DNA of 64,000 nucleotides from an uncultured Gammaproteobacteria bacterium (GCA_964522515.1 CAZFWC010000001.1:14536-78535); one strand, 5' to 3'. Positions 1 to 52,636 are shown, counted from the first letter of the stretch. Numbers and translations: made by a program. The notes: a model not told the origin generated them from the sequence alone.

Positions 1-29
1 TTTTTTCTTCGTGAGTCATTTTGAGTTTT

Positions 30-203
30 TCCGCCTTCGCCCCTAAAAAATCCTACTGGACTACGGCGGATACCTGTCTGCCGACAGGCAGGAATTCTTA
101 TTTAAAAAACACAGGAGCCTGTCCGCCGGCTTGCCCGCCGTAGCTTTTAGCGAAGGAGGGAGCTAGAGTTTTTTAGGATTGGGGGCGTAGGAGGATTAGG
201 CGA
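30..203. repeat. GC-rich composite palindromic element, full-length copy abutting stop codon of 204..1427
   Basis: CCGCCTTCGCCCC...CTACGGCGG / CCTGTCTGCCGACAGGCAGG / CTTGTGTTT..AAACACAGGAG / CCGCCGTAGC...GCGAAGGAGG...TTAGGCGA. Confidence 0.85.
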
Positions 204-2286: not shown

Positions 2287-3732
2287 TTACGAAAGTAAAT
2301 CAATTCCTTTTTTAATTCTTATTAGACTTTTTTCTTTTCCTAAAACTTCCGCTACTTCAAATGGACCAGGAGAATTTTTTCTACCTGTTAAAGCAACGCG
2401 CAAAGGCCAAAGCGTGTCCCCTGTTCCCAAATTTTTAGCTTTGATTAATCCAATAATTAATTGTTCCAAAGCGCTACGAGTCCAGTTTTGTTCAGGAATT
2501 TTTTCTAATTCTTTGTGCAAAAATTCTAATTTTTGTTTTGCGTCAATTAAATCAGATTTTTTCCATTTTAATAATTCTTTATCATAATTTATTTTTTTAA
2601 AAAAATATTCTGTAGCTTCTGAAATTTCAGAAAGTTTTTTAATTCTTTCTTGCTCTAAAGCAACAACTTTTTGAATATATTTTTCATTGTAACTTTCAGA
2701 GTCAACTAAATTATTATCAATTAAATAAGGCAAACAAAGTTCAGCAAAATTTTCTAAATTTAATTTACGAATATAAAATCCGTTCATCCAATCTAATTTT
2801 TCTTTATCAAAAATTGCTCCAGCTTTGTGAACTTTTTCTAAAGAAAATTCATATTCAAGTTTTTCTAAAGTAAAAATTTCTCTTTCATCTCCTGGATTCC
2901 AACCAAGAAGCGCAATATAATTTATTAGCGCTTGCGCTAAATATCCTAATTTTTTAAATTCTAAAACTCCAACTGCTCCGTGTCGTTTTGATAATTTAGA
3001 TTTATCTGAAGCTAAAACCATTGGCAAGTGCGCAAATTTTGGAGTTTCCCAATTAAAATAATTATATAAAATAATATGTTTTGGTGTTGAAGGCAACCAC
3101 TCTTCTGCTCTGATAATGTGAGTAATTTTCATTTCGTGGTCGTCAACTACATTTGCCAAATGATAAGTTGGGTAGCCATCTGATTTTAAAAGTATTTGGT
3201 CGTCAATTTCTTCGTGATTAAATTCAACTTGACCTCGGATTAAATCAATGAATTTTGTTTTGCCTTCTGGAATTTTCATTCTAACAACACAAGGAATTTT
3301 AGCTTTTAATTTTTTTTCAATTTCTTCTTGAGTTAAATTTAAACAGCGACGGTCGTATTTTGGCGCTTGCTTGTTTTGCTCTTGATTTTGTCGCATTTTA
3401 ACTAAAGTTTTTTGAGTACAAAAACAATAATATGCTTTGCCTTCTTGCACAAGTTGTTCTGCGTATTTTTTATAAATTTTTATTCTTGAAGATTGATAAG
3501 GAATATTATTTAAATTATCTGGTTTTATTTTTGCCCATTTTAAACCATCTAAAATCGAATCAATACTTCCCTCTTTAAATCTTGCTTGATCTGTGTCTTC
3601 AATTCTTAATAAAAATTCACCATTATTTTTTTTAGCAAATAAATATGCAAAAAGCGCAGTTCTTAAACTGCCAATGTGTAAATCACCTGTTGGGCTTGGA
3701 GGAAATCTAGTTTTTATTTTATTATTTGTCAT
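2287..3732 (-). CDS. gltX: glutamyl-tRNA synthetase
   Basis: HIGH-type motif (PSPTGDLHIGSLRTA), KLSKR motif, full-length class I GluRS architecture. Confidence 0.9.
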   Translation of the reverse strand: MTNNKIKTRFPPSPTGDLHIGSLRTALFAYLFAKKNNGEFLLRIEDTDQARFKEGSIDSILDGLKWAKIKPDNLNNIPYQSSRIKIYKKYAEQLVQEGKAYYCFCTQKTLVKMRQNQEQNKQAPKYDRRCLNLTQEEIEKKLKAKIPCVVRMKIPEGKTKFIDLIRGQVEFNHEEIDDQILLKSDGYPTYHLANVVDDHEMKITHIIRAEEWLPSTPKHIILYNYFNWETPKFAHLPMVLASDKSKLSKRHGAVGVLEFKKLGYLAQALINYIALLGWNPGDEREIFTLEKLEYEFSLEKVHKAGAIFDKEKLDWMNGFYIRKLNLENFAELCLPYLIDNNLVDSESYNEKYIQKVVALEQERIKKLSEISEATEYFFKKINYDKELLKWKKSDLIDAKQKLEFLHKELEKIPEQNWTRSALEQLIIGLIKAKNLGTGDTLWPLRVALTGRKNSPGPFEVAEVLGKEKSLIRIKKGIDLLS

Positions 3733-3815
3733 ATTAGTTTAGCACGCGAATTTTCAGAATTACCTAAAATTTACGCGAATTTAATTCTGGTTTATTATGG
3801 TTATTTTGGAAATTC
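3733..3815. repeat. AT-rich palindromic intergenic repeat family (cacgcgaatt / ccagaat modules), copy 1
   Basis: shares about 30-nt blocks AATTTTAGGTAATTCTGG.AATTCG.GT.CTAT with 17080..17165 and 30720..30840. Confidence 0.7.
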
Positions 3816-10442: not shown

Positions 10443-12926
10443 TTAAATTAATTTTTCTAATTTTTTAATATATTTTTCAACTCCAATTTCTTTAACTGAT
10501 TCAACGCAATTGGTTGACATATTTGCTAGTTGTTTTTTATTTTGTAAACTAAATTTTAAAATTTTTAATAAATCTTCTGTATCACCAGCTTCAAAAGTAA
10601 AGCCGTTAAAATCATCTTTAATAAATTCAATCCCGCCAATTCGCGCAGCTAAAACTGGCACACCATTTGATAAACTTTCAAAAATAACTGTTGGTGAATT
10701 TTCGTAACATAAAGACGAAACAATTGTTGCGTTGGTCTGAACAAAAATTGTGTTCAACTCAGAATTAGGAATGTAGCCTTTGAAAATAATTTGAGAACAG
10801 TCACTAGCTAATTTTTTAGCTTCATCTAATGCTGTGCCTGTGCCTGCGATTAGAAGGTTAATGTTTTTATTATTATTTTGTTCAGATAATAATTTTTTAA
10901 AAACATTTATTAAAAATAAAACACCTTTGTATTTTTCAACTTGCCCAAGAAAAAGAAAAGTAAATTTATTATCATTTGCAATATTAGCAAATGTTTTAAT
11001 GTTTTGGTGCCTGTCCGCCGTAGCCCTGCCTTGCCGGCAGGCAGGTTTAGCGAAGGAGGATTTTAATGTTTTTATGTTGATTGGATTTGTGAGAATTATT
11101 TTTTTAGATTTTGGAAAAAATCTTCTTTGATTATAAAATTCAAGTAAAAATTTTGATGATGAAATTATAATTTCAGGATTATTAAAAGCCCAGCGATTAT
11201 AAATTTGATAAAGTTTTGTTAAGAAAAAATTGTGTTGCCAAGAGTTTTCTTCGTTTTTTAAAATTAAACCAGATGGTGTTGCAAGTTGAACTTCGTGAAG
11301 TGTGTGGATATTTTTTACTTTGCATTTTTTAATTGCGCGACAAGTTAAATATCCAACACCTTTTAACATATGAGTCATTGAAACTTCTGGTTTTTCTTTT
11401 TTTAAAATATATTTAATTACCCAATAAGAATGCAAGTTAAACATATCAAAAGCGTGCCAAAATAGTCGTAGAAATGGTCTGTGAGCGTATTTATTTATAT
11501 TTAAGTATGAAAACAGGTTTAAAGGATAAAAACGATAAATAATTAAGTTGTTTTCAATAGTTTTTTTAGGCAACAAACTGCGTAAATTTTTAAATTCACA
11601 AATTGTAATTATAAAAATTTTATGATTTGTTTTTTTAAATCCTTTGACAATATTATTAACCACTGTTTCAGCGCCACCTTTTGTGTAAGGCGCAAAAACT
11701 GAAGTGATAAGGCAAATGTGCTTTCCCGCCTTCGCCTTTAACAACTCTACTGGACTATGGCGGGCAAGCCCTTTATTTTTTTGAGTTGGTAGTTTAAATT
11801 TATAATAGTTAATAATTTTTTCACAAATTTTTTTCCAATTATATTCTTTTTCAACTTTTTTTCGTCCTTCTTGCCCAAATTGTTTTGTTTTTTCTGTATC
11901 GTTTATAAAAAATAATAATTTTTTTGCAAGATCTCGGGCGTCATTTGGTTTAACAATTAAACCAGATTTATTTTTATCAGATGTAACTCGTAATCCTGGC
12001 CAATCTGAAACAACAACAGGAGCGCCACAAGCCATTGCTTCTACTGCTGTAATTGAAAAACTTTCAGTTGGCTGCGTTGATGGAACTGGAACAACAGTTG
12101 CTAAATTATAATAAAGTGGCAATTCATTATGATCAATATTGCCCAAAAAAATTACTCCAAAGTGAACACTAAATTTGTTCACTAATTTTTTATAATAATT
12201 TAATAAATTACCTTCTCCTGCAATTAATAATTTTACATCTTGATGATTTATAATTTTTATTGCTTTTATTAAAACATCAATTCCTTTAAAAAAATGGGCT
12301 TTGTCCAAAGCTTGGGCAGTAAAAATTATTTTGTCTGTGTCTTTTAAATTTAATTTATTTTTAATATTTTCAGTATTTAAATTTGGTTTGAATTTTTCAA
12401 TATCAACACCGTTTGGTACAACTTTAAATTTTTCAGAATATTTAAAATAATATTTTTTGATTTTTGAATGACGCGCGTAATCATCTGATAAAACAAAAAC
12501 TTGGTCAACTGTTTTAAATAAAAACGGTGCAATAATTTTTTGGTGTAAATTATTAACAAATTTTGTAATTCCCTTGCCAACCATATCCATTTGATAATGA
12601 AAAATAATTTTTGGACATTTTTTTCTTTTAATTTTTTTTAAAAACCACAAAAATTCTGCAACACCAAAATACGGATAATACAAATGAACTACATCAAAAT
12701 TTTTAACTAATTTCATAATTTGTGGCGCAAAATCTGCATAACCAAAAGAAAATAATGGTTTAAATAATTTTATTTTAAAATTTCCTTGTTTATAATCAAT
12801 TTTTCTGTCAGCTAAAAATACTGTCACATTATGTGACTTTCCAATTTCATTTGCAGTGTAAAAACACGCTGTCCCCATTCCGCTTGAAAGTGGAGGAAAC
12901 ACTGGACTAATGTAAGCGATTTTCAT
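10443..12926 (-). CDS. two-domain (tandem) GT4 glycosyltransferase
   Basis: two GT-B/GT4 modules, each with a C-terminal E-X7-E-like region; carries two in-frame GC-rich element insertions. Confidence 0.7.
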   Translation of the reverse strand: MKIAYISPVFPPLSSGMGTACFYTANEIGKSHNVTVFLADRKIDYKQGNFKIKLFKPLFSFGYADFAPQIMKLVKNFDVVHLYYPYFGVAEFLWFLKKIKRKKCPKIIFHYQMDMVGKGITKFVNNLHQKIIAPFLFKTVDQVFVLSDDYARHSKIKKYYFKYSEKFKVVPNGVDIEKFKPNLNTENIKNKLNLKDTDKIIFTAQALDKAHFFKGIDVLIKAIKIINHQDVKLLIAGEGNLLNYYKKLVNKFSVHFGVIFLGNIDHNELPLYYNLATVVPVPSTQPTESFSITAVEAMACGAPVVVSDWPGLRVTSDKNKSGLIVKPNDARDLAKKLLFFINDTEKTKQFGQEGRKKVEKEYNWKKICEKIINYYKFKLPTQKNKGLARHSPVELLKAKAGKHICLITSVFAPYTKGGAETVVNNIVKGFKKTNHKIFIITICEFKNLRSLLPKKTIENNLIIYRFYPLNLFSYLNINKYAHRPFLRLFWHAFDMFNLHSYWVIKYILKKEKPEVSMTHMLKGVGYLTCRAIKKCKVKNIHTLHEVQLATPSGLILKNEENSWQHNFFLTKLYQIYNRWAFNNPEIIISSSKFLLEFYNQRRFFPKSKKIILTNPINIKTLKSSFAKPACRQGRATADRHQNIKTFANIANDNKFTFLFLGQVEKYKGVLFLINVFKKLLSEQNNNKNINLLIAGTGTALDEAKKLASDCSQIIFKGYIPNSELNTIFVQTNATIVSSLCYENSPTVIFESLSNGVPVLAARIGGIEFIKDDFNGFTFEAGDTEDLLKILKFSLQNKKQLANMSTNCVESVKEIGVEKYIKKLEKLI
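11010..11060. repeat. intragenic in-frame GC-rich element (tandem GT4 gene)
   Basis: CTGTCCGCCGTAGCCCTGCCTTGCCGGCAGGCAGGTTTAGCGAAGGAGG. Confidence 0.8.
11724..11770. repeat. intragenic in-frame GC-rich element, opposite orientation (tandem GT4 gene)
   Basis: CCCGCCTTCGCC...CTACTGGACTATGGCGGGCAAG. Confidence 0.8.
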
Positions 12927-14300: not shown

Positions 14301-15108
14301 TTTTAATATTTATCCATACAAACAAATTATAAATCCACTTACTTGGCAGTAGCAAAAGTAGAAATTCTATAAGCAATCTAATTTCTGCAAACACTGTCCA
14401 GTGTTTTTTAAATCGAAAATATTTTTGTTTAATTTTTATTGTGTCTTTAAGTTGTTTTTTTAATTCGTATTTTTTAGAACCCGCGGAATGCATTCTGTAT
14501 TTTAATAAGGGCTGTTGTAAATTATATAATTTCTTATTTTTTAAAATTAATTGACAAAATAAATCGTAATCTGAAATTTTATCAAATTCTTTTTTATAAA
14601 ATCCAATTTCTTGAAAATCTTTTTTATAAAACATTATGCTTGGATGAGCAACAACATTTCTAATCCGCATCTTTTGGCTAATTTCAGCTGAATTTTCTGG
14701 ATATTTTCGTGTTCCAATTATTTTATCATTTTCATTAATAATTGTTAAATTTGAACCAACTAAATTAATTTCAGGATTAGAAATTAAAAAATCCAACTGT
14801 TTGGACAATCTGTTTGGTTCAGAAATATCATCTGCGTCCATTCTAGCAATAATTTCACTTTGAGCTAATTTAATTCCTTTGTTTAATTGTTCTGCAAAAT
14901 TTGTTCTAGATGAATTTAAAAAATATTTAATTCTAGAATCATTAAAATTATTTATAATATTTTTTTGAGTATTTTCACTTGGATCTTCAATAATAATTAA
15001 TTCAAAATTTTTATAATCCTGATTTAAAATACTTTTGGTTGCTTGCTCAAAATATTTTTGTTTTGTATTCCAAACAGGCATTATTACTGAAATTAATTTA
15101 TTTGTCAT
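14293..15108 (-). CDS. GT2 family glycosyltransferase
   Basis: N-terminal GT-A block VIMPVWN...DYKNFELIIIEDPS, DAD motif. Confidence 0.7.
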   Translation of the reverse strand: MTNKLISVIMPVWNTKQKYFEQATKSILNQDYKNFELIIIEDPSENTQKNIINNFNDSRIKYFLNSSRTNFAEQLNKGIKLAQSEIIARMDADDISEPNRLSKQLDFLISNPEINLVGSNLTIINENDKIIGTRKYPENSAEISQKMRIRNVVAHPSIMFYKKDFQEIGFYKKEFDKISDYDLFCQLILKNKKLYNLQQPLLKYRMHSAGSKKYELKKQLKDTIKIKQKYFRFKKHWTVFAEIRLLIEFLLLLLPSKWIYNLFVWINIKSE

Positions 15109-15436
15109 ATTTTTTTATTTTTTCTAACGCGTCTTTTCTCACGATTTTAGTAATATTTTTTTCAATGTTTTCTAATTTAAGTCTAATTTTAAAAATTAAA
15201 TAAAATAAAATAATAATTCCAATGTAAAGCAAAATATCAATTCCAGAACTTGAAAATCCAAAATTTATTGCTAATTTATCAATCCACTTTAAAGATGAAA
15301 TTGCAACTGCGGAAAATATCCAAAAAATAAACCAAAATATAAATTCATTTTTTGAAATCTGTTGTTTTTGTTTTTGCAATAATAATCTTATGATAAAATA
15401 TAAAATTATTATTAAAGCAATAATTTGTTGAAGCAT
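15098..15436 (-). CDS. small 3-4 TM membrane protein, GtrA-like flippase candidate
   Basis: 112 aa, hydrophobic helices, directly downstream of a DPM/GtrB-like GT2. Confidence 0.4.
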   Translation of the reverse strand: MLQQIIALIIILYFIIRLLLQKQKQQISKNEFIFWFIFWIFSAVAISSLKWIDKLAINFGFSSSGIDILLYIGIIILFYLIFKIRLKLENIEKNITKIVRKDALEKIKKYDK

Positions 15437-15454
15437 ATATTTTTAAAATAATGT

Positions 15455-15540
15455 CATTCTGAGCGAAGCGAAGAATCTATTTTAATAAACCAGATCCTTC
15501 ACTCCCAAAAAAGCTGTTCAGGATGACAACTTTGACAAAC
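15455..15540. repeat. gtcatyc(t/c)gag...(t/c)caggatgac palindromic repeat family, copy
   Basis: GTCATTCTGAGCGAAGCGAAGAATC ... GTTCAGGATGACAA. Confidence 0.65.
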
Positions 15541-16267
15541 ATATTTCCTTAAGTATTTTAAAACCAGAGCCAACTCCTTGTCCAAATTCATTATAAATTA
15601 CTGTTACTGGAACTTCTTTAAATCTTAAATTATTTTTTTTGATTTGCGAAATTATTTCTGTGTTGTGAGACATTCTGTCTTGAAAAATTTTTATTTTTTG
15701 CCCAGCTTTATTTGATAAAACACGATAACCACAGTGAGCGTCTGTTAATTTAATTCCTGTGATTAATCTATTTATCACACGACTTACAGGATGTATAATT
15801 TTTCTTTTTGCAAATGGCATTTTTTTATTTTTTTGTAAAAAACGCGAACCTAAAATAATATCAACTTCATTATTTAATAAAGAAACTAAAGTTTGTTGAA
15901 TTTCATTTACAAGATACTGTCCGTCTGCGTCAAAGTGGACAATAATTTCAGCATTATTTTTAAGAGCAAAATCTGTGCCTGTTTGAAGAGCCGCGCCTTG
16001 CCCTCTGTTAATTTCGTGTTTTAAAACAGTGATTGGAAATTGTTTTAAAATTTCAAAAGTATTATCTGTTGAACAGTCGTCAACAACCACAATTTGATAA
16101 TTGTGTTCTAACAAATTTTTAATCACTTGCGCAATATTTTTTTCTTCATTAAAAGCTGGGATAATAATGAAAATGTTTTGGTTCATTTTGATCTGGATGT
16201 CATCCCGAGCTTTGGTAGGATTTTTTAGGATTGGGTCAATGCAACGGGATCCCATCACTTCTAGCAA
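15518..16267 (-). CDS. GT2 glycosyltransferase, dolichyl-phosphate-mannose synthase/GtrB-like
   Basis: IIIPAFNEE...VVVDDCSTDNT...DADGQY blocks; true start probably MNQNIF near 16186 because the first 27 codons lie inside a palindromic repeat. Confidence 0.7.
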   Translation of the reverse strand: MLEVMGSRCIDPILKNPTKARDDIQIKMNQNIFIIIPAFNEEKNIAQVIKNLLEHNYQIVVVDDCSTDNTFEILKQFPITVLKHEINRGQGAALQTGTDFALKNNAEIIVHFDADGQYLVNEIQQTLVSLLNNEVDIILGSRFLQKNKKMPFAKRKIIHPVSRVINRLITGIKLTDAHCGYRVLSNKAGQKIKIFQDRMSHNTEIISQIKKNNLRFKEVPVTVIYNEFGQGVGSGFKILKEICLSKLSS

Positions 16268-16310
16268 ATTCTAAAGGTCGTTCGGGATGACAACGGGTGA
16301 ATAAATATTA
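16190..16310. repeat. gtcatcccgag family copy with TTTTTTAGGATTGGGTCAATGC.ACGGGATCCC core; overlaps termini of two CDSs
   Basis: GTCATCCCGAGC ... TTTTTTAGGATTGGGTCAATGCAACGGGATCCC ... GTTCGGGATGACAA. Confidence 0.7.
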
Positions 16311-17068
16311 TTTGAGTAAGTTGTAATTTGTTCATTAAACAAAAAATCAAAACCAGTAGCAAAAGCATTTTCTAAAAGTTTTATTTTTTGATTAACTTGA
16401 TTTTCATTTGGAATAAATTCAATTTCAAAACTAGCATTTGCTTTTTCATTTAATTTTAATTCATCTAAATTCCAAGTAATTAATCTTGTTTTCTTATCAA
16501 AATTTAAAGTTTTGCCTTTGTTAACTGCGATTTTATTAGTGTAATTAATATTTGTTGGCAGTTTAGCTTGGATTTTAATATTTTTAATTGCGCGTGGTGA
16601 GCTACTTAATTCCCAAACAATTCGCGCGGAAGTTGTTGCATTAACTTTAGGAGGCCAAGCTCCAATTCCAAGTTGTTCACTTTCTTTTGTGTAGTAAATT
16701 AATTGATTATTAAAAATTAAATTTGCTGGCACAGTATCATTTTTTACTTCTTGCTTGTCTGTTTCACCGCTAACTTTTTGATGAGTAATTTTTAATTCAA
16801 AAGTTTCAATTGGGAATTTTTGAGTTAATAAAAAAATATTAATTAAAATTAAAAGAATAATTAGAAAAATTAAAATCAAATCAATAATTAAATGTTTTTT
16901 TGACTCTTTATAAAATTTATCAAATCGTTTGAGCAAAGGATTTGTAAAAATATTTAAAGTGCGAATATAAATTGGATATTTTTTTGTGTTTTCTAAATTC
17001 AAATCTTGTTTAGAGATTATTTTTTCGTCTTGTGAAACATCTTGAATTTTATTTTTTTGATTATTCAT
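16271..17068 (-). CDS. hypothetical membrane-anchored extracytoplasmic protein
   Basis: single N-terminal TM; last 8 codons (PVVIPNDL) encoded by the gtcatcccgag-family repeat arm. Confidence 0.4.
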   Translation of the reverse strand: MNNQKNKIQDVSQDEKIISKQDLNLENTKKYPIYIRTLNIFTNPLLKRFDKFYKESKKHLIIDLILIFLIILLILINIFLLTQKFPIETFELKITHQKVSGETDKQEVKNDTVPANLIFNNQLIYYTKESEQLGIGAWPPKVNATTSARIVWELSSSPRAIKNIKIQAKLPTNINYTNKIAVNKGKTLNFDKKTRLITWNLDELKLNEKANASFEIEFIPNENQVNQKIKLLENAFATGFDFLFNEQITTYSNNIYSPVVIPNDL

Positions 17069-17079
17069 ATTTTTAAAAA

Positions 17080-17165
17080 TTAATTAAGCACGCGAATTAC
17101 CAGAATAAACCAGAATTTTAATTCGTGTAAATTTTAGGTAATTCTGGTAATTCGTGTTCTATTCT
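17080..17165. repeat. AT-rich palindromic intergenic repeat family, copy 2
   Basis: AGCACGCGAATTACCAGAATAAACCAGAATTTTAATTCGTGTAAATTTTAGGTAATTCTGGTAATTCGTGTTCTAT. Confidence 0.7.
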
Positions 17166-17241
17166 ATTTAAAAAAACAATTTCCTCTCTTCTAAAAAATT
17201 TTAAAAGTCATTCAACATGACAATAAAAAATACTGACAATC

Positions 17242-19359
17242 TTAATAAGCTAAAATCTCAACTTCCTCATCTTGATCAATATCAAATGCGCTTACTTTAG
17301 CGCCGTTGCGAGAATCTGGATCAAAAGCAAAAAACCCAGGATCAACTAAATGACCAATTTTATCATAAATCCTAATGTGCGGACCGCCAGTTAAACCTGC
17401 TCCTGTAATTATCTCATCTTTTCCATCATTATTCAAATCTAGGCAAGCAACATTTACGCCACCTCTGAATTTTAAATCATAAGAAAAAAATCCAGGATCA
17501 AATAAATGTCCGTCAGATCTGAAAATTCTAATGTGTGGACCGCCACCAAAACCAGCGCCAGTTACAATTTCTTTGTAACCATTTCCATTTAAATCACCTA
17601 AAGCCACATTTACTCCACCACGAAAATTTTTATTATAAGCAAACCAGCCTGTGTGAATTAAGTTTCCTTGATAATTAAAAATTCTAATTTGCGGTCCGCC
17701 ACCTTGTTGCGTTCCAGTTACAATTTCTAATTTTTTATCATCTTGAATATTTCCAATTGCAATATTAATTCCTGAATTATATTTTTCTCCATAAGGATAA
17801 AAAGTTTTAACTAAATTATTTTGAGAATTAAAAATTTTAACTGAATTTGAATTTGCCACAATTGTTTCAAATTTTCCATCTTGGTCTAAATCAGAAATAT
17901 TAATTTGTGCGCCACCTTCAAATTTTGATAAGTAAGCAAAAAAACCAGATCTTTTATTGTTTCCGCGTTTATCAAAAATTCTTAAATAAGAACCATTTAT
18001 AAAAGTTGTATTTATTAAATTAAATTCTTCTTGATTGTTTTCCTGATTAATTAATTCTAATTTTTTTAATAAAATAATTCCGTCTTGTGCTGGTAAAAAA
18101 ATTTGTTTAACCAATTCTCCGTTATTTATTTTTTTATCTTGCACCCCACGAATTTTTTCATAAACTGCATTGTTGTCTAAATTAATTATTTGATTTTGCT
18201 GTGTAGAATTAACTAAAGCAATTCCGTTTTCAAAATCACGACGCCAAATTCCTGATTCGTATTGAACACTAAATTTGTCTTGCCCGCCGTAGCCTTGGCG
18301 AAGGTGGGTCAGTAAATTTTGCGCGGAATTAATTGGTTGACCTAAATTAATATTGTATTCATCATACCACCAAAGTTGAGAGTGATCTTCTGTGCCAAAA
18401 TCAAACGCAAAATATCCATTTTCTAACAAACTTGAAGCTAAACCAAAACGCACTTTTTTAAAATTATTTTTATCACCAGTATTATTTGTATTTGGGTTTA
18501 AAATAATAATATGTGGTAAATAATTAATAGAATTATTTAAATTTTTATAATCATTCATTTGTCCAACCCAACTTCCTTGCCATTTGTCTGGCCAAGATTC
18601 ATAAATTCTACCGTTAATAAAATTTTTTGTGTAACTTGAACTGTTAATTAAAATAATTTTATTATTTCCTAATTCTTTTCTAGTATTTTCTAATAATTTT
18701 TTCATTCCTTCTTGCCACTGGTTGTCAGTTAAATTTGTATTATTAATTTTATCTAAAACATTATCAAAAAAAACTCCATCCCAATTTCCAGTGTTAATTA
18801 ATTCTTGTTTAACAAATTTGGGTAGCCAAGAATTAAATTCAGAATTCGTAACATTAAATGAATAATTTCCTGGCCAAATTGAGTGAATATTATTTTGTTT
18901 ATCTTTTAACCACCAAGATGAATTAATTTGCGCATACATTTTATGCCACGGACCATTTGAGCTTTCTAAAATTTTATAATTTTGAATTGGAAATTCCATT
19001 GAAGAAAGATAAGCAATAATTTTAATATTAGGATTAAGATTTTTTAATTCAGAAAAAATATTTAGGTTTGTGTCTTGAACTTGCATTCCTAAAATAACCA
19101 CATCCCATTTTGCTAATTTATTTATTTCAGAATTTGAAATTGGAGTTTTTAAATAATAATTTGCAAGTTTTGGGTAGCTGTTATAACTAGCTTGCGCTGG
19201 TTGTAAAAATAAAAAAAACGCTAAAAAAATTAACGCCAATAAAACAAAAAAAGCAACATTTTTAAAGTTATTTTTTAAATTTATAAATTTGCTCCAATTC
19301 TTTATAATATTGTTCAGAATTGTACAATTTAGCCACTTTTTGTTGAATTTCATATTCAT
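17242..19359 (-). CDS. secreted protein: N-terminal glycoside-hydrolase-like domain plus C-terminal FG-GAP/beta-propeller repeats
   Basis: signal/TM anchor; repeated DxDxDG...VTGAGxGGGPHIRIF units (FG-GAP-like); contains an in-frame GC-rich element. Confidence 0.55.
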   Translation of the reverse strand: MNMKFNKKWLNCTILNNIIKNWSKFINLKNNFKNVAFFVLLALIFLAFFLFLQPAQASYNSYPKLANYYLKTPISNSEINKLAKWDVVILGMQVQDTNLNIFSELKNLNPNIKIIAYLSSMEFPIQNYKILESSNGPWHKMYAQINSSWWLKDKQNNIHSIWPGNYSFNVTNSEFNSWLPKFVKQELINTGNWDGVFFDNVLDKINNTNLTDNQWQEGMKKLLENTRKELGNNKIILINSSSYTKNFINGRIYESWPDKWQGSWVGQMNDYKNLNNSINYLPHIIILNPNTNNTGDKNNFKKVRFGLASSLLENGYFAFDFGTEDHSQLWWYDEYNINLGQPINSAQNLLTHLRQGYGGQDKFSVQYESGIWRRDFENGIALVNSTQQNQIINLDNNAVYEKIRGVQDKKINNGELVKQIFLPAQDGIILLKKLELINQENNQEEFNLINTTFINGSYLRIFDKRGNNKRSGFFAYLSKFEGGAQINISDLDQDGKFETIVANSNSVKIFNSQNNLVKTFYPYGEKYNSGINIAIGNIQDDKKLEIVTGTQQGGGPQIRIFNYQGNLIHTGWFAYNKNFRGGVNVALGDLNGNGYKEIVTGAGFGGGPHIRIFRSDGHLFDPGFFSYDLKFRGGVNVACLDLNNDGKDEIITGAGLTGGPHIRIYDKIGHLVDPGFFAFDPDSRNGAKVSAFDIDQDEEVEILAY
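18279..18310. repeat. intragenic in-frame GC-rich element core (FG-GAP protein gene)
   Basis: CTTGCCCGCCGTAGCCTTGGCGAAGGTGGG. Confidence 0.8.
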
Positions 19360-29360: not shown

Positions 29361-30167
29361 TTACTTTGTCAAAATTTCACTTCCTTTTTCAGTTACTAAA
29401 ATTGTGTGTTCAAAATGCGCAGCTAAGGAATTGTCTTCGGTTTTAAACGCGTTAGTTTTTTTATCAACAACAACATCTGGATTCCCAGCTGTAACCATTG
29501 GCTCAATTGCTAAAGTCATTCCTGATTTTAAAATCGGACCAGTTCCTTTTTTCCCAAAATTTGGAATTTGTGGAGGCTCGTGCAATTTTTTTCCAACCCC
29601 GTGCCCAACTAATTCATAAACCACGCTAAATTTATTTTTTTCAACAAATCTTTGAATTTCATAAGAAATATTACCTAAATAAATTCCTGGTTTTATTTTT
29701 TTAATTGCTAAATCCAAAGATTTTTTAGTTACACTCAGAAGTTTTTTTGTTGAATGAGAAATTTTTCCAATTGAAACTGTTTTTGCCATATCTGTAATCA
29801 TTCCATTCCCTCCTTCGCCAAGCCTGCCTGACGGCAAGGCAGGGCTACAGCGGGCAGGTTTTGCAGGATATCTTAATCCAATATCAATACTTAAAATATC
29901 TCCATCTTGTAAAATGCGATTTGGAATTGCTGGCGCGTGCACAACTTCATTATTAATACAAGTACAAATCGCTGTTGGAAATCCTTGATAACCTTTAAAT
30001 ATTGGCCAACCATTTATTTTTTTTATTTCTTTTTCCGCTAATTCATTTAGTTCTTTTGTGCCAACACCAATATCAGCTTTTTTAATAAGCAAATTTAAAA
30101 TTCGCGCTAAATGTTTTCCGCATTCTCGCATTATTTCAATTTCTTTTGGGGTTTTTATGATAATCAT
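29361..30167 (-). CDS. map: methionine aminopeptidase type I
   Basis: MetAP pita-bread fold motifs (HGVGKKLHEPPQIPNFG, metal ligands); carries about 57-bp in-frame GC-rich element insertion. Confidence 0.85.
   Translation of the reverse strand: MIIIKTPKEIEIMRECGKHLARILNLLIKKADIGVGTKELNELAEKEIKKINGWPIFKGYQGFPTAICTCINNEVVHAPAIPNRILQDGDILSIDIGLRYPAKPARCSPALPSGRLGEGGNGMITDMAKTVSIGKISHSTKKLLSVTKKSLDLAIKKIKPGIYLGNISYEIQRFVEKNKFSVVYELVGHGVGKKLHEPPQIPNFGKKGTGPILKSGMTLAIEPMVTAGNPDVVVDKKTNAFKTEDNSLAAHFEHTILVTEKGSEILTK
29808..29866. repeat. intragenic in-frame GC-rich element (map)
   Basis: CCTCCTTCGCCAAGCCTGCCTGACGGCAAGGCAGGGCTACAGCGGGCAGG. Confidence 0.8.
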
Positions 30168-30174
30168 TTTTTTC

Positions 30175-30245
30175 TTAATGTCATCCCGAGTTTTGATAGA
30201 ATTTTTTAGGATTGGGTCAAGGCGATGGGATCCCGTTTTTATACA
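30175..30245. repeat. gtcatcccgag family copy upstream of map
   Basis: TGTCATCCCGAGTTTTGATAGAATTTTTTAGGATTGGGTCAAGGCGATGGGATCCCG. Confidence 0.7.
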
Positions 30246-30402
30246 AATAATTCTAATTTAAACCAACACTGCGAATTTTTAATTATTTATTTTTATCTAA
30301 TATTAATTTAAAAAATAGTTTTCCACAGTTTCGGGCTTGACTTCTTCTTCTTTTGCTAGACTTAAAATTGATTAAAATAATTCACAATTAAATTTAATTT
30401 AA

Positions 30403-30719: not shown

Positions 30720-30840
30720 ATCAAGCACGCGAATTTCCAGAAGCGAAAAAGTAAATGATTTTACTTTTGAGACAGAATAAACCAGAATTTAAATTCGCGT
30801 CAATTTTAGGTAATTCTGGAAATTCGCGTTCTATTTTATT
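30720..30840. repeat. AT-rich palindromic intergenic repeat family, copy 3 (longest)
   Basis: AGCACGCGAATTTCCAGAAGCG...AAACCAGAATTTAAATTCGCGTCAATTTTAGGTAATTCTGGAAATTCGCGTTCTAT. Confidence 0.7.
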
Positions 30841-30851
30841 TACTTAATTTT

Positions 30852-31580
30852 TCAATTTTTTAATCCCAAGCTAGAAAATATATCTCTCTTAACCTTCTCA
30901 ATACTTTGCTCACCATTTATTTCAATTAACAAATTTTTATCACGATAATATTCAACAACTTCTTCTGTTTCAGTGTGATAAATTTTTAATCGTTTGCGAA
31001 TTGAATCTTCTGTGTCATCTTCACGAATTTCTAATTTTCCACCGCATTTATCACAAATATTTTCTGTTTTAGGAGGATTAAATTTAATGTGATAAATCTC
31101 ACCACATTTAGTGCAAGTTCTGCGACCAGACAAACGATAAATTGCTTCATCATCTGAAATATTAACTAAAATTACAGAAGAAATATTTGTGACTGTTTCA
31201 ATAAATTTAGCTTGAATAATTATTCTAGGAAAACCATCAAAAATAAAACCATTTTTGCAGTCGTCTTTTTTTATTCTGTTTTTTGCTAATTTGTGCGCGA
31301 TTGAATTTGGAACAAGCTGTCCTTTGTTCATAAATTCTTTTGCTTGTTTTCCAATCTCTGTTTTGTTTTCAATTTCATTTCGTAAAAGTTGACCAATTGA
31401 AATATTTGGAACAATTAATTTTTTAGATAAAAATTCAGCTTGTGTTCCTTTGCCAGATCCTTGTGGTCCAAGAATAATTATTTTATGGATTTTGTTTTTC
31501 ATATAATTTATTTTAACATTTGCGTATTTAATTTGCAATAAAAAAACAGGCAAAATCAAAATGCCTTTTTTTATTCGCAT
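30852..31580 (-). CDS. adk: adenylate kinase (Zn-lid type); probable true start near 31502 (MKNKIHKIIILGPQGSGKGT)
   Basis: P-loop GPQGSGKGT, LID with CTKCG...CDKCG zinc motif; 26-codon N-terminal extension looks spurious. Confidence 0.9.
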   Translation of the reverse strand: MRIKKGILILPVFLLQIKYANVKINYMKNKIHKIIILGPQGSGKGTQAEFLSKKLIVPNISIGQLLRNEIENKTEIGKQAKEFMNKGQLVPNSIAHKLAKNRIKKDDCKNGFIFDGFPRIIIQAKFIETVTNISSVILVNISDDEAIYRLSGRRTCTKCGEIYHIKFNPPKTENICDKCGGKLEIREDDTEDSIRKRLKIYHTETEEVVEYYRDKNLLIEINGEQSIEKVKRDIFSSLGLKN

Positions 31581-31594
31581 TATTAGTTTAAATT

Positions 31595-31670
31595 AGCACT
31601 ATTCGCATTTTACAGACCCTTCCGCCCCGACCCAATCCTAAAAACTCTGTCGGAATTCAGGATGACAAAA
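31595..31670. repeat. gtcatcccgag family copy (reverse orientation) upstream of adk
   Basis: CCTTCCGCCCCGACCCAATCCTAAAAA...TTCAGGATGACAA. Confidence 0.65.
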
Positions 31671-41853: not shown

Positions 41854-42618
41854 TTATTTATTTTTTAAATATATTTTTTCAATTATTTCTAAACTTTTTT
41901 CAATAATTAATATTTTCTCAAACTTCAAAAGATCCAAAACATTTAAACTGTCTGCTGTTGTGATTTTAATTCCTTGCAAATTTTTTCCTGCGCTAAATAT
42001 TTTTCTGTCTGCTTTTTCTAAAATAATTAATAATGATAATTTGTAATTTTTAATGTCAAAATTGCGCTTTCCCTCCTTCGCTCCCTGAGTGTCCTTTATC
42101 ACTTCGGCGGGCAAGCTTTTAGTTTTTTTTGTTTTCTTTTCAATCTCTTTAATATTTATTATACTTTTTAAATTTTTCAAAATTTCAACAAATTCTTTTG
42201 TTTTACCTTCAGCTAAATTTAATTTGTCTAATAAAATAAATAAATTATTGTTTACTTTATCAGACAAACACATAAATAATGCTTTTGTTTTTTGTTTTTT
42301 ATTAACTTTTTTAGAAAAGTTTCTGTCTTTTGTGGGTCCAAAAGTCACACCGCCCCCAACCCAAATTGGTGAACGACTTGAACCGTGTCTTGCGCGTCCA
42401 GTTCCTTTTTGTTTCCAAGGTTTTTTCCCACCACCGCGAACTTCACTTTTATCTTTTGTGTGAGCAATCGCAACTCTTGAATTTGCCATTTGCGCAACTG
42501 CGACTTGATGTACAACAGAATTTTTTATTTCAATTCCAAAAATTTTAGAATTTAATTCTAGTTCTTTTACTTTTTCTCCAAGTTGGTTGTAGATTTGTAT
42601 TTTTTTCATGTTAGTCAT
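41854..42618 (-). CDS. rplD: 50S ribosomal protein L4 (C-terminally extended, with in-frame element insertion)
   Basis: L4 core blocks; operon position. Confidence 0.85.
   Translation of the reverse strand: MTNMKKIQIYNQLGEKVKELELNSKIFGIEIKNSVVHQVAVAQMANSRVAIAHTKDKSEVRGGGKKPWKQKGTGRARHGSSRSPIWVGGGVTFGPTKDRNFSKKVNKKQKTKALFMCLSDKVNNNLFILLDKLNLAEGKTKEFVEILKNLKSIINIKEIEKKTKKTKSLPAEVIKDTQGAKEGKRNFDIKNYKLSLLIILEKADRKIFSAGKNLQGIKITTADSLNVLDLLKFEKILIIEKSLEIIEKIYLKNK
42070..42116. repeat. intragenic in-frame GC-rich element (rplD)
   Basis: CCTCCTTCGCTCCCTGAGTG...CTTCGGCGGGCAAG. Confidence 0.75.
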
Positions 42619-42710
42619 CCTGATCCCGAGTGCTCGGGAGAAGGATCTGTTTTTTTAATTATTTATTTTATTAATTTTTGGCTAATTTTAGCTAATAATA
42701 CGAATGGGCT

Positions 42711-44996: not shown

Positions 44997-46199
44997 TTAT
45001 TTTATAATTTTAGTAACAACACCAGCGCCAACAGTGTGACCGCCTTCACGAATCGCAAATTTAAGTTTTTCTTCCAAAGCAATTGGTTGAATTAATTTAA
45101 CTTTTAAATTAACAGTGTCGCCCGGCATTACCATTTCTGTTCCTTCTGGCAATTCAATATCACCGGTTACATCAGTTGTTCTAATATAAAATTGCGGTTT
45201 GTATCCTTTCATAAAAGGAGTGTGTCGTCCGCCTTCTTCTTTTGTTAAAATATAAATTTCAGCTTCAAATTCAGTGTGTGGAGTAATTGATCCTGGTTTT
45301 GCTAAAACTTGTCCGCGTAAAATATCTTCTTTTTTAGTTCCACGAAGTAAAATTCCAGCGTTGTCACCAGCTCTGCCTTCATCAAGTGACTTGTTAAACA
45401 TTTCAATTCCAGTTACAACAGTTTTTGCTGTGTCTTTTAAACCAACAATTTCAATTTCATCATTTAATTTAACAATTCCTCTTTCAATTCTACCAGTTGA
45501 AACAGTTCCACGACCTTCAATTGAGAAAACATCTTCAACAGGCATTAAGAAAGGTTTTTCAGTGTCTCGTTTTGGTTCTGGAATGTAAGAATCAAGTTTG
45601 TCCATTAATTCCAAAATTGATTTGTAATTTTCATCATCTTTGTTTCCAGCTTGAGCTGCTTCTAAAGCTTTAAGAGCAGATCCTTTAATAAATGGGATTT
45701 CGTCACCTGGAAATTCATATTTTTTTAAAAGATCTTTGATTTCTTCTTCAACTAAATCAATTAATTCAGGATCATCAACTTGATCTGTTTTGTTTAAATA
45801 AACAACAATTGAAGGAACACCAACTTGGCGAGCAAGTAAAATGTGTTCACGAGTTTGAGGCATTGGACCGTCAGCAGCAGACACAACTAAAATTGCACCA
45901 TCCATTTGAGCAGCGCCGGTAATCATATTTTTAATGTAATCTGCGTGACCTGGACAATCAATGTGAGCGTAGTGTCGTTTGTCAGTTTCGTATTCAACAT
46001 GAGCTGTGTTAATTGTAATTCCACGAGCTTTTTCTTCAGGCGCGTTGTCGATTTCATTTAGACTTTTATTTTGCGCAGTTTTACCTTCAGCATTAAGAAC
46101 TGCAAGGATTGCCGCAGTTAAAGTTGTTTTACCGTGATCAACATGACCAATTGTGCCAATGTTAACATGCGGTTTTGTTCGTTCGAATTTTTCAGCCAT
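44997..46199 (-). CDS. tuf: elongation factor Tu
   Basis: [22 protein letters not shown]-motifs; full-length EF-Tu. Confidence 0.97.
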
Positions 46200-46400: not shown

Positions 46401-46458
46401 GAGCCTGTCCGCCGTAGCTAGAGTTTTTTAGGATTGGGGGCGTAGGCGGATTAGGCGA
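46401..46458. repeat. GC-rich element short copy abutting stop of acidic protein gene
   Basis: GAGCCTGTCCGCCGTAGC...TTTTTTAGGATTGGGGGCGTAGGCGGATTAGGCGA. Confidence 0.8.
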
Positions 46459-50345: not shown

Positions 50346-50503
50346 TTTAAAAACCTCAGAGTTTTATTTCTGGGTTTTTTATTTTTAAAAAATTTAAAAC
50401 ATAAGTCAAATGCAATTTTTCAGTATTTGTGGTTTGAACAAAATGGCTCCACCCAAGAGGGACGGAGCCAACTCTAAAAGCCGTTCGGGATGACAGCTGT
50501 GCT

Positions 50504-52636
50504 TTATTTATTTTTTCCTTCCACAATTTCCTCTGCCACATTTTTCGGAACTTCTGCGTAGTGATGAAATTCCATTGTTGAAGTTCCACGGCCTTGAGTA
50601 ATTGAACGCAAAGTTGTAACATATCCAAACATTTGAGCCAAAGGCACTTCCCCATCAATAACTTTTAAATTCCCGCGCTCTTTCATTTCATTAATTTTCG
50701 CGCGTCTAGAACTTAAATCACCAATCACATCACCCATATATTCTTCAGGCACAAGAACTTCAATTTTCATAATTGGTTCAAGCAAAATTGAACCCGCATT
50801 TTTAGCAGCTGCTTGAAAAGCAATTGAGCCCGCCATTTTAAACGCAATTTCAGAAGAATCAACTTCGTGAAAAGATCCATCAAACACACTTGCTTTAATA
50901 TCTACCATTTGATAACCAGCAACAATTCCTCGGCTCATTGCTTCTTTAACGCCTTTTTGAATTGCTGGAATATATTCTTTTGGAATCACTCCGCCTTTAA
51001 TTGCGTCAACAAATTCAAAATTTTCTGTTTTAAGAGATTGATCTTTAGAATCTTTTTCTTTTGGTTCAATTCTAAGCCAGCAGTGTCCATATTGTCCGCG
51101 TCCACCAGATTGTTTAATATATTTTCCTTCTGCTTCAGCTATTTTTTTAATTGTTTCTTTGTAAGCAACTTGCGGTTTGCCAACATTACATTCAACTTTA
51201 AATTCTCGTTTCATTCTTTCAACTAAAACATCTAAATGCAATTCTCCCATTCCCGAAATAATTGTTTCTAAAGTTTCTTCATCGGTTTTAATTTGAAAAG
51301 TTGGATCTTCTTGCGCTAATTTATTTAAAGCCAATCCCATTTTTTCTTGATCAGTTTTTGTTTTTGGTTCAACAACAACTGAAATTACTGGCACTGGAAA
51401 AATAATTTTTTCTAACACAACAGGACTATTTTCACTACAAATTGTGTCGCCAGTTGTTGTTTGTTTTAATCCAACAGCCGCGGCAATTTCACCAGAAAAA
51501 ACTTCATCAACATCTTCTCGCGAGTTTGCGTGCATTCTTAAAATTCGTCCTAATCTTTCTTTTTTCCCAGTAGTTGTGTTTAAAATATAAGTTCCAGCTT
51601 TAATTGTTCCGGAGTAAACTCTAAAAAAAGCCAAACTGCCAACAAAAGGATCAGTTGCAATTTTAAAAGCTAAAGCAGAAAACGGTTCTTTGTCATCAGC
51701 TTTTCTAATTTCTTTTTGAGATTCCCTGTCCGCCGTAGCTTTAGCGAAGGAGGAATTTTTTGGATTAAAACCTTGAACAGACGGGACATCTAAAGGCGAA
51801 GGCAAAAAATCATTAACAGCGTCCAAAACAAACTGCACACCAATATTTTTTAAAGCAGAACCTGCTAAAACTAAATAAATATTATTTGATAAAGTTCCTT
51901 TTCTTAAACCTTTTTTAATTTCGTCAATATTTAATTCTTTTCCATTTAAAAATTTTTCTAACAAATCATCATCTTGTTCAGCGGCTTTTTCAATTAATTC
52001 TGCGCGATATTTTTCAGCCTGCTCTTTTAAATCAGCTGGGATTTCAATTTCATTAATTTCTTCGCCGTGCTCTCCTTTAAATTCAAAAGCTTTCATTTCT
52101 AAAATATGAATTACGCCTTTTAAATTTTCTTCAGCTCCAATTGGAATTGTATAAGCAATTGCGTTTGGATTTAATCTTTGTTTAATTGATTCAATACTCA
52201 TTTTAAAATCCCCGCCCATTTTATCCATTTTATTAATAAAAGCGATTCTTGGAACTTTGTATTTATCAGCTTGACGCCAAACAGTTTCTGATTGTGGCTC
52301 AACACCTTGGGCTCCGTCAAAAACCGCAACTGCTCCGTCAAGCACACGCAAACTTCTTTCAACTTCTGCTGTAAAATCAACATGACCCGGAGTGTCAATA
52401 ATGTTGTAGCAAAAATCTTTCCAAAAACAAGTTGTCGCTGCTGAAGTAATTGTAATTCCTCTTTCTTTTTCTTGTTCCATCCAATCCATTTCAGATTCAC
52501 CTGTGTGAGTCTCGCCAATTTTGTGTTTTTTTCCAGTGTAAAATAAAACACGCTCTGTAAAAGTTGTTTTACCAGCATCAATGTGGGCTATTATTCCAAT
52601 ATTTCTAGTTTTTTCTAAAGTATATTTTCTTGGCAT
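50504..52636 (-). CDS. fusA: elongation factor G (with in-frame GC-rich element insertion)
   Basis: [18 protein letters not shown]-motifs, full five-domain length. Confidence 0.95.
51724..51755. repeat. intragenic in-frame GC-rich element core (fusA)
   Basis: CTGTCCGCCGTAGCTTTAGCGAAGGAGG encodes ...AKATADRES... in an EF-G loop that is longer than in E. coli EF-G. Confidence 0.8.

Follow-up and report, generated by a model that had tools for sequence, protein, structure and literature searches.

Hairpin repeats at gene termini in a Patescibacteria genome are probably of the Ssn-associated NTS/SRM type

The stretch of DNA analysed here, a window of 64,000 nt (GCA_964522515.1 CAZFWC010000001.1:14536-78535), has a G+C content of 28.8% and carries nearly all of its genes on the minus strand. 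A glycosyltransferase cluster occupies the region at 10-23 kb, while at 29-46 kb a series of small minus-strand open reading frames (ORFs) lies beside secY-adk-map and is the counterpart of a ribosomal-protein operon that has been annotated in the relative L142. Two further genes were assigned by eye from the list of ORFs: 44997..46199 as a putative EF-Tu gene, and 50504..52636, an ORF of 710 aa, as probably EF-G (fusA). The host is a bacterium of the candidate phyla radiation (CPR, or Patescibacteria), because the cluster formed at 90% identity around the SecY of the window has members named 'Candidatus Parcubacteria bacterium' and 'Patescibacteria group bacterium'. Several families of short, G+C-rich repeat modules are scattered over the window. 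The subject of this work is the third palindromic family recognised among them in an initial annotation, and above all its copy between the gene for a 265-aa membrane-anchored protein and a family 2 glycosyltransferase (GT2) gene, here called element A. Gene junctions were compared mainly with those of the syntenic relatives L009 and L141 and, for secY-adk-map, with L142, L143 and others whose SecY is 93% identical to that of the window.

The string GTCATCCYGA has seven exact matches in the window where 0.05 are expected from shuffled sequence, and none of 100 shuffles reached seven. A second string, TTTTAGGATTG, is matched 18 times with at most one mismatch (5.5 expected) and eight times exactly, three of these being in the hairpin family and five in a GC-rich family. 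In total, eight hairpin units occur at six loci of the window, as two inverted doublets (A and D), three single units (B, C and F) and one partial unit (E) (Table 1). All of the copies listed in the initial annotation exist; their coordinates have been refined, and unit F, which had been missed, is added. The palindromic family reported there is real, but its 'palindrome' is a doublet of two hairpin units, a build that had gone unrecognised together with the relation to NTS/SRM repeats and Ssn nucleases described below. The left arm of A is matched by the covariance model of the unit at 77.1 bits, this copy having been in the training set, and the right arm, whose sequence was outside it, at 33.5 bits (E=5e-6). 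The arms of D score 13.2 and 18.2 bits; the left one is a minimal unit, TGTC-ATTCT-GAGCGAAGCGA-AGAAT-C, and the right one, on the minus strand, reads TGTCATCCTGAACAGCTTTTTTGGGAGTGAAGGATC. Unit E scores only 8.6 bits and lies 9 nt downstream of the stop codon of the 710-aa ORF. Orientation relative to transcription is mixed, with B and F antisense and C and E sense. Unit F has an identical copy in L069, and element A is identical in eight independent public contigs (JGI, ENA and Logan), which rules out an assembly artefact as its source. At 14..54 of the window, a degenerate head, AGTCATTTTGAG, abuts a GC-rich module and gives a weak match to the model (10.1 bits).

Table 1. Hairpin units of the window and the two genes that adjoin element A.
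Feature	Position	Strand	Description
Element A, doublet	16198..16292		TGTCATCCCGAG...TTCGGGATGACA, 93 nt between GTC and GAC
Element A, left arm	16198..16253	+	TGTC head; outer stem ATCCC/GGGAT; inner stem GCTTTGG/TCAATGC; loop with TTTTTTAGGATTGG; C after the palindrome
Element A, right arm	16246..16292	-	Second, diverged, inverted unit, TGTCATCCCGAACGACCTTTAGAATTTGCTAGAAGTGATGGGATCC
Element D, 75-nt doublet	15452..15528	+	Between the GT2 gene and the DUF2304 gene
Unit B, single	30179..30234	+	11 nt upstream of the map start codon; model match 86.7 bits
Unit C, single	31613..31667	-	13 nt downstream of the secY stop; model match 60.9 bits
Unit F, single	42613..42649	+	AGTCATCCTGA[TCCCGAGTGCTCGGGA]GAAGGATCT; outer stem ATCCT/AGGAT; nested hairpin in the loop; model match 19.1 bits
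Unit E, partial	50444..50495	-	Head TGTCATCCCGAACGGCTTTTAGAGTTGG (50485..50495), then an unrelated GC hairpin; without the 3' half of the outer stem
265-aa membrane-anchored protein gene	16271..17068	-	Last six codons and stop inside element A
GT2 glycosyltransferase gene, 222 aa	15518..16186	-	ATG start at 16186; last two codons and TGA (15526..15518) inside element D

The basic unit consists of Y-GTC, a palindrome that starts with AT(C/T)C(C/T) and ends with (A/G)G(A/G)AT, and a final C. In the lineage of the window, a second conserved hairpin, whose own loop bears TTTTTAGGATTGG, expands the loop; in the minimal form of 27 nt, represented by the left arm of D, the unit is reduced to YGTC-ATYCY-GAGCGAAGCGA-RGRAT-C. 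Between units, the loop varies from GCGAAGC up to inserts of about 35 nt in which modules are nested, and the same outer sequence recurs in metagenome contigs of 26% to 64% G+C. A scan of species-representative genomes located true homologues in two low-GC metagenome-assembled genomes (MAGs), where the full element measures 127 nt and is composed of GTCATCCCGAG-TCTTGAT-AGGACTTTTTAGGATTGG-GTCAAGG-CGATGGGATCCC, a centre of about 29 nt and a diverged inverted second unit. Element A is this 127-nt element without the centre, a short form that is also found in contig L134.

The units are real hairpins maintained by compensatory change. In an alignment of 15 copies, 96.7% of the cells pair and six of the 12 pairs change on both sides; none of 500 shuffles matches this stem covariation, and all controls in which the stem was slid collapse. 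The variants of the outer stem covary as ATCCC/GGGAT, ATCCT/AGGAT, ATTCC/GGAAT and ATTCT/AGAAT, and G2, T3, C4 and C54 are invariant in the alignment as well as in the unit variants listed here. At one stem position, 10 of the 15 copies have a T-G wobble on the GTCAT strand, which favours one strand, as expected of repeats recognised by a strand-specific binder of single-stranded DNA. Folding of A and D is more stable than that of shuffled sequence on either strand (z = -3.0 to -5.4). Rfam scans at the gathering threshold (window and 20 loci) and permissive ones run on the elements gave nothing beyond tRNA, rRNA and chance hairpins far below threshold.

Element A remodels the 3' end of the 265-aa gene. 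The initial annotation had credited it with the last eight codons and the stop; the contribution holds, but it amounts to six codons and the stop, with 16291..16271 of the minus strand reading GTC ATC CCG AAC GAC CTT TAG and encoding VIPNDL followed by the TAG stop. The element also gives the third base of the Val codon preceding VIPNDL, and the P and V ahead of this tail belong to flanking DNA and are conserved in orthologues. The C-terminal residues themselves are not shared: seven homologues of the 265-aa protein end in ...YSPKVTK*, ...YTPNIIQ*, ...YSPVVQ* and the like, and none of the seven ends in VIPNDL*. The VIPNDL* tail does occur on two unrelated ORFs in another genome (L014 and L015), where it derives from the same right-arm sequence. 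In L009, the stop of the 265-aa orthologue stands directly before the GT2 ATG with no element between, and in L141 the two are separated by 2 nt; removal of A plus one base (94 nt) from the window restores a stop that overlaps the GT2 ATG. The differing orthologue C-termini, the relatives without the element and the recurrence of VIPNDL* elsewhere bear out the earlier proposal that the family contributes coding termini.

At the other side of element A, the longest GT2 ORF begins at a TTG within the repeat. The 222-aa product starting from the ATG at 16186 is 87% identical to its orthologue in L009 (10655..11320), which begins MQQNIF..., and is collinear with it from residue 1. This comparison confirms that the 27 additional N-terminal codons (16187..16267), already suspected to be spurious, are an artefactual extension of the ORF and that the gene starts at ATG 16186. 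Public gene calls on identical DNA disagree on this gene, which is 245 aa long in some contigs but 222 aa in others. Another start-codon ambiguity that arises from a repeat is seen at unit F, where the ATG of the longest ORF of the minus-strand gene at 41854..42618 lies in GGATGAC of the unit head and a second ATG follows 9 nt downstream.

Presence and absence of units differ between relatives in both directions. Element D gives the GT2 gene of the window its SS and TGA, so that the protein ends in KLSS* where that of L009 ends in KLNN*; L009 lacks D, has 3 nt between GT2 and DUF2304, and removal of D (75 nt) restores an ORF of the same length as in that relative. In L141, the codon position of D is occupied by a unit with a different loop. 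A and D thus occupy junctions that are 0-3 nt long in relatives, and have taken the place of the final codons and the stops of the genes upstream. Conversely, L009 has a unit that encodes CHPERSKGSI* at the end of Wzy_C, another that abuts the stop of a GHL15 gene, and a 114-nt doublet between GT2 and GT4 genes that overlap in the window. In the ribosomal-protein region, no unit follows secY in relatives with 93% SecY identity, so that C is absent, and adk and map of L143 overlap without a spacer and so without B; the same relatives have a 114-nt doublet upstream of adk and an in-frame unit at the 3' end of adk that encodes VIPAKAGIHSCL*. Units are therefore polymorphic for insertion at orthologous gene junctions. 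No direct repeats indicative of target-site duplication were found beside the eight full doublets of a related MAG or beside A or D, and conservation in the flanks is limited to a T before GTC and an A after GAC.

Next to the 114-nt doublet of L009 (5340..5520, copy at 5378) there are some 10 additional AT-rich nt on either side, and the insert as a whole is bracketed by a duplicated ATGAAT. The upstream stop and the downstream start are both kept in this arrangement, which is a poor fit to a simple insertion bounded by terminal repeats. The idea that B and C are the ends of a composite transposon carrying adk was rejected, as the order secY-adk-map is conserved and B and C are separate single units. 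Each of the two carries its own copy of one AT-rich module of about 45 nt, which follows the unit at 30236..30283 and 31565..31612 and contains two TGCGAAT boxes (TGTAAAATGCGAATA..CTAATTTAAAC..TGCGAAT). A unit with this module is also present in L044 at about 3190..3240, and all three composites are located upstream of a same-strand gene.

Effects on gene ends extend to other genomes: of the 63 unit heads in CPR-like loci, 15 end ORFs of 120 aa or longer, and the VIPNDL* tail is common to three unrelated ORFs. All 12 reading frames entering A or D meet a stop inside the element. With near-zero intergenic space, an insertion between genes would be expected to strike a gene end, and it would survive only where few terminal residues are lost and a stop is quickly supplied, as this element does in every frame.

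The connection of these units with a known system was made through a related sequence string, GTCATTCCCGCG, which led to a study of Neisseria (Chenal et al. 2025, Nat Commun 16:2388, PMC11893778). That study describes the Neisseria NTS repeat, CGTCATTCCCGCGMAVGCGGGAATCYRG, a longer form of dRS3 (ATTCCC-N8-GGGAAT), as the target of SsnA, a single-domain GIY-YIG protein of 94 aa. Binding of the NTS hairpin by SsnA is restricted to single-stranded DNA and to one of the two strands, the RNA form is not bound, and cleavage falls a few bases upstream of the repeat (PMC11893778). Cleavage requires the GTC that precedes the palindrome, binding depends most crucially on the C that follows it, and the loop is tolerant in that it can be changed and extended (PMC11893778). 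The ssn genes are typically flanked by repeats, SsnA modulates transformation in Neisseria, and Rickettsia is listed among the genomes rich in Ssn-related motifs (SRM repeats) (PMC11893778). Patescibacteria are not mentioned in that paper (PMC11893778), a literature search found no follow-up to it, and searching the literature by sequence string returned nothing for the CPR or high-GC variants of the unit.

Homologues of SsnA are encoded in CPR genomes, flanked by units homologous to those of the window. A motif search of the loci identified in L048 a single-domain GIY-YIG ORF of 95 aa (PF01541, E=6.7e-16) between doublets, a unit of which has exactly the outer sequence of unit B, GTCATCCCGAG...CGATGGGATCCC. 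Compared over the full length with a 94-aa ORF of Neisseria gonorrhoeae that lies amid 10 canonical NTS copies within a 3.3-kb stretch, this ORF has 42% identity and a CPR homologue, P0098, 41% (BLASTP E=2e-27 and 7e-26). The gonococcal sequence used for comparison came from a chromosome mislabelled as a plasmid in PLSDB, where two N. gonorrhoeae 'plasmids' of 2.17 Mb (NZ_CP119140.1 and NZ_CP119142.1) are evidently chromosomes. The CPR homologues of the L048 ORF measure 93-99 aa, and those from named taxa belong to Kuenenbacteria, Daviesbacteria and Parcubacteria; Pfam assigns these proteins, candidate members of the Ssn family (CDD cd10448), to PF01541 only, and the best solved structures are UPF0213 proteins, with weak matches (E=5e-5). 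Units are found on both sides of the ssn homologue in five of six loci (L048, L152, L158, L160 and L166) and on one side in the sixth (L170). The genome that includes L150-L157 has a unit-ssn-unit element of 417 bp and, 0.7 kb away from it, a doublet of 130 nt that shares its ends but lacks the gene; this doublet is in frame inside a gene of NAD-binding/DHOD-B type. A 52-nt length difference between L150 and L152 is accounted for by a scaffold gap. In a Kuenenbacteria contig (L158, 3001..5246), the ssn homologue adjoins a competence gene of ComEC type, an adjacency that is suggestive given the role of SsnA in transformation.

Taken together with the build of the units, these observations make it probable (roughly 0.7) that the third palindromic family consists of hairpin repeats of the NTS/SRM type that go with Ssn, in a dialect of their own in CPR bacteria. 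The units of the window share with NTS/SRM repeats the YGTC head with GTC directly before the palindrome, the AT at both ends of the palindrome, the invariant C directly after it, and hairpins with loops that vary freely or are extended; the two are also alike in the clustering of many copies around genes and, in the CPR relatives, in a homologue of SsnA of about 95 aa flanked by inverted units. They differ in the stem, which in the window units is ATCCC-GA...GA-GGGAT with G-A mismatches as opposed to ATTCCCGCG...CGCGGGAAT, in the expansion of the loop by a conserved second hairpin, and in the Patescibacteria/CPR host. [quoted passage not shown] The host would encode Ssn outside the window, and Ssn would recognise each unit by its top strand in single-stranded DNA. 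The interaction of Ssn with the units may underlie the spread of the repeats, an effect on recombination of incoming DNA, or both.

Several observations weigh against this assignment. The published SRM pattern, HGTCWYN(0-2)YYVSBRHN(0-5)WNVSBRGN(0-2)RNCYNB, matches canonical NTS but has no site in the window on either strand. It fails on A-left, B, D-left and F, on the in-frame adk unit of L143, on the high-GC minimal unit and on the ssn-flanking units of L048 and L160; the failure of the window units is due to the difference in stem sequence. Nor do the window units, or the units that flank ssn in CPR genomes, match the strict NTS motif CGTCATTCCCGCGMAVGCGGGAATCYRG. The 64-kb window contains no GIY-YIG ORF, and no GIY-YIG gene was found beside any unit with the TTTTTAGGATTGG loop, so that the link is made through the shared outer sequence and through relatives. 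As for insertion, neither a target-site duplication nor an exact pair of empty and filled sites could be defined, the relatives being too diverged to fix the boundaries, and the copy of D found in L141 may have been inherited and not newly inserted. To our knowledge, no GIY-YIG nuclease is a known transposase. The further step, in which unit-ssn-unit would be a genuine mobile element with the GIY-YIG single-strand nuclease as its mobilising enzyme and the doublets and single units as its non-autonomous offspring, is proposed tentatively, as a possibility that is rather doubtful at present.

A similar build is known from repetitive extragenic palindromic (REP) sequences, and the units could be REPs, the doublets REPINs and the mosaics bacterial interspersed mosaic elements (BIMEs), all mobilised by a REP-associated tyrosine transposase (RAYT), a Y1 HUH enzyme of the IS200/IS605 type. 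Short hairpins with a conserved 5' head, inverted doublets, the lack of target-site duplication and a mosaic of modules are common to both; however, the head of the unit is GTCA, not the GT(A/G)G that is typical of REPs, and the enclosed gene in six of six CPR loci encodes a GIY-YIG protein and not a Y1 transposase, although no search was aimed at Y1 enzymes. The analogy with REP/RAYT systems, drawn by Chenal et al. themselves (PMC11893778), extends to an inverted hairpin doublet that behaves as the replicating form and a single-copy nuclease gene flanked by the same units, with a GIY-YIG protein here taking the place of the Y1 HUH enzyme there. As an account of the family, RAYT mobilisation is unlikely. 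Classical MITEs, that is, deletion derivatives of DDE insertion sequences moved by cut-and-paste through terminal inverted repeats of 11-12 nt (TGTCATCCCGAG / CTCGGGATGACA), would explain the TG...CA inverted-repeat termini, the length of 75-130 nt and the presence/absence polymorphism. This origin is highly improbable given that single units, which have one terminus, occur as often as doublets, that the sites surveyed for target-site duplication (the eight MAG doublets, A and D) show none, and that no pair of termini among about 170 loci encloses a transposase, ssn being the sole enclosed gene. Pairs of termini 0.4-3.5 kb apart yielded no autonomous element and proved to be separate neighbouring elements.

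It could also be supposed that the hairpins are functional RNA or operon signals selected in place, such as terminators, mRNA-stabilising hairpins or processing sites, and not insertions at all. The fold stability of A and D and their location between co-transcribed genes are in keeping with this, and repeats of MITE type are known to serve as RNase sites and promoters (PMC10969869). Against it, the units lie in both orientations relative to transcription, are absent at the orthologous junctions of close relatives and match no Rfam family; the region 15000..17300 is without a terminator-like site, its promoter-like sites are at chance level, and SsnA shows no binding to its repeat as RNA (PMC11893778). 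An origin as RNA signals is accordingly quite improbable, although individual copies may have been put to such use secondarily.

Assignment to the Ssn-associated repeats places the family within a kind of system that has already been described, and the coding effect of palindromic repeats is also a known kind of event (PMC10969869). Beyond the published account of Ssn (PMC11893778), the present comparison adds insertion polymorphism, doublets that consist of ends only, and remodelled gene ends. The Neisserial intergenic mosaic elements (NIMEs) and the E. coli BIMEs offer a further parallel. NIMEs are Neisseria repeat units bounded by inverted dRS3, and BIMEs are mosaics of REPs. As in both of these, inverted pairs of hairpins surround a short centre and form mosaics with other modules (see also PMC11893778), but NIMEs and BIMEs are described as extragenic, whereas here copies overlap gene ends or lie in frame inside genes. 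Fusion of short palindromic repeats with host ORFs has precedents, among them the Rickettsia palindromic elements (RPEs) (PMC10969869). The resemblance to RPEs and other MITEs of this kind, which is one of description, lies in a reduced, symbiont-type genome in which palindromic repeats become coding without destroying the gene; RPEs are mostly internal, in frame and about 150 bp long, while element A replaces a C-terminus and supplies the stop.

The hairpin family shares modules with other repeats of the window. The TTTTTAGGATTGG block that forms the loop of the inner hairpin is also present in five copies of the GC-rich family, and the covariance model built for the unit matches the GC-rich copy at 46406..46451 weakly over the full length (19.7 bits, E ~0.01); this copy has a TGTC head and the same loop block, and CCGCC/GGCGG can be read in place of the outer stem. 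Other hairpin modules are nested inside unit loops. The suggestion that the two families have a common modular origin is supported by the shared block, the full-length match and this nesting. The nested modules include small GC hairpins (such as CCTGCCTGCCGGCAGGCAGG and TCCCGAGTGCTCGGGA) in the loops of units in L034 (2924, plus strand), L025 (4405, minus strand) and the window (42613..42649); close variants stand alone in the GC-rich family of the window, as if these hairpins of 16-24 nt had themselves been inserted.

GC-rich modules are also found within genes of the window. In map (29361..30167, minus strand), a palindromic GC-rich module at 29808..29860 is in frame and adds 17 residues (PARCSPALPSGRLGEGG) that are missing from L143. 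The 827-aa ORF on the minus strand at 10443..12926 corresponds to two GT4 genes that are separate and overlapping in L009 and fused in frame here; the junction near 11741..11774 comprises about 15 residues, including GLARHSPVE, that can be read as a fragment of a GC-rich repeat, and the coordinates of a second module (10997..11063) place it at aa 621-643, in the second half of the ORF. Between 33900 and 46500, many spacers of small ORFs are filled by mosaics of GC-rich repeats of 60-270 nt, while in L142, whose SecY is 93% identical, the spacers of the ribosomal-protein genes are mostly 3-17 nt and at most 25 nt long. By this comparison of sequences, a recent burst of the GC-rich family in this region is suggested. 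An AT-rich palindromic family, CAGAATAAACCAGAATTT.AATTCG.G..., with copies at 17101..17170, 30773..30842 and 3721..3784, is unrelated to the hairpin units.

If the hairpin units are correctly assigned, the Ssn system, described in 2025, extends to the Patescibacteria in a dialect of the repeat that is missed by the published pattern, and the natural loop expansions of this dialect fit the loop tolerance reported for the Neisseria repeat. Reciprocal presence and absence, doublets of ends only beside the gene-carrying element, and copies in frame provide comparative evidence for the behaviour of these repeats as insertions. For annotation, the family explains odd ends of CPR proteins such as VIPNDL*, CHPER...* and KLSS*, as well as false starts such as the 27-codon N-terminus, and in so compact a genome insertions of this kind are a visible source of gene-end change and gene fusions. 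Should unit-ssn-unit indeed be a mobile element, it would represent a class of single-strand-DNA transposon built on a GIY-YIG enzyme and not on a DDE, HUH or serine/tyrosine enzyme, and a GIY-YIG-based transposon would be active in CPR bacteria, routinely rewriting the termini of their genes.

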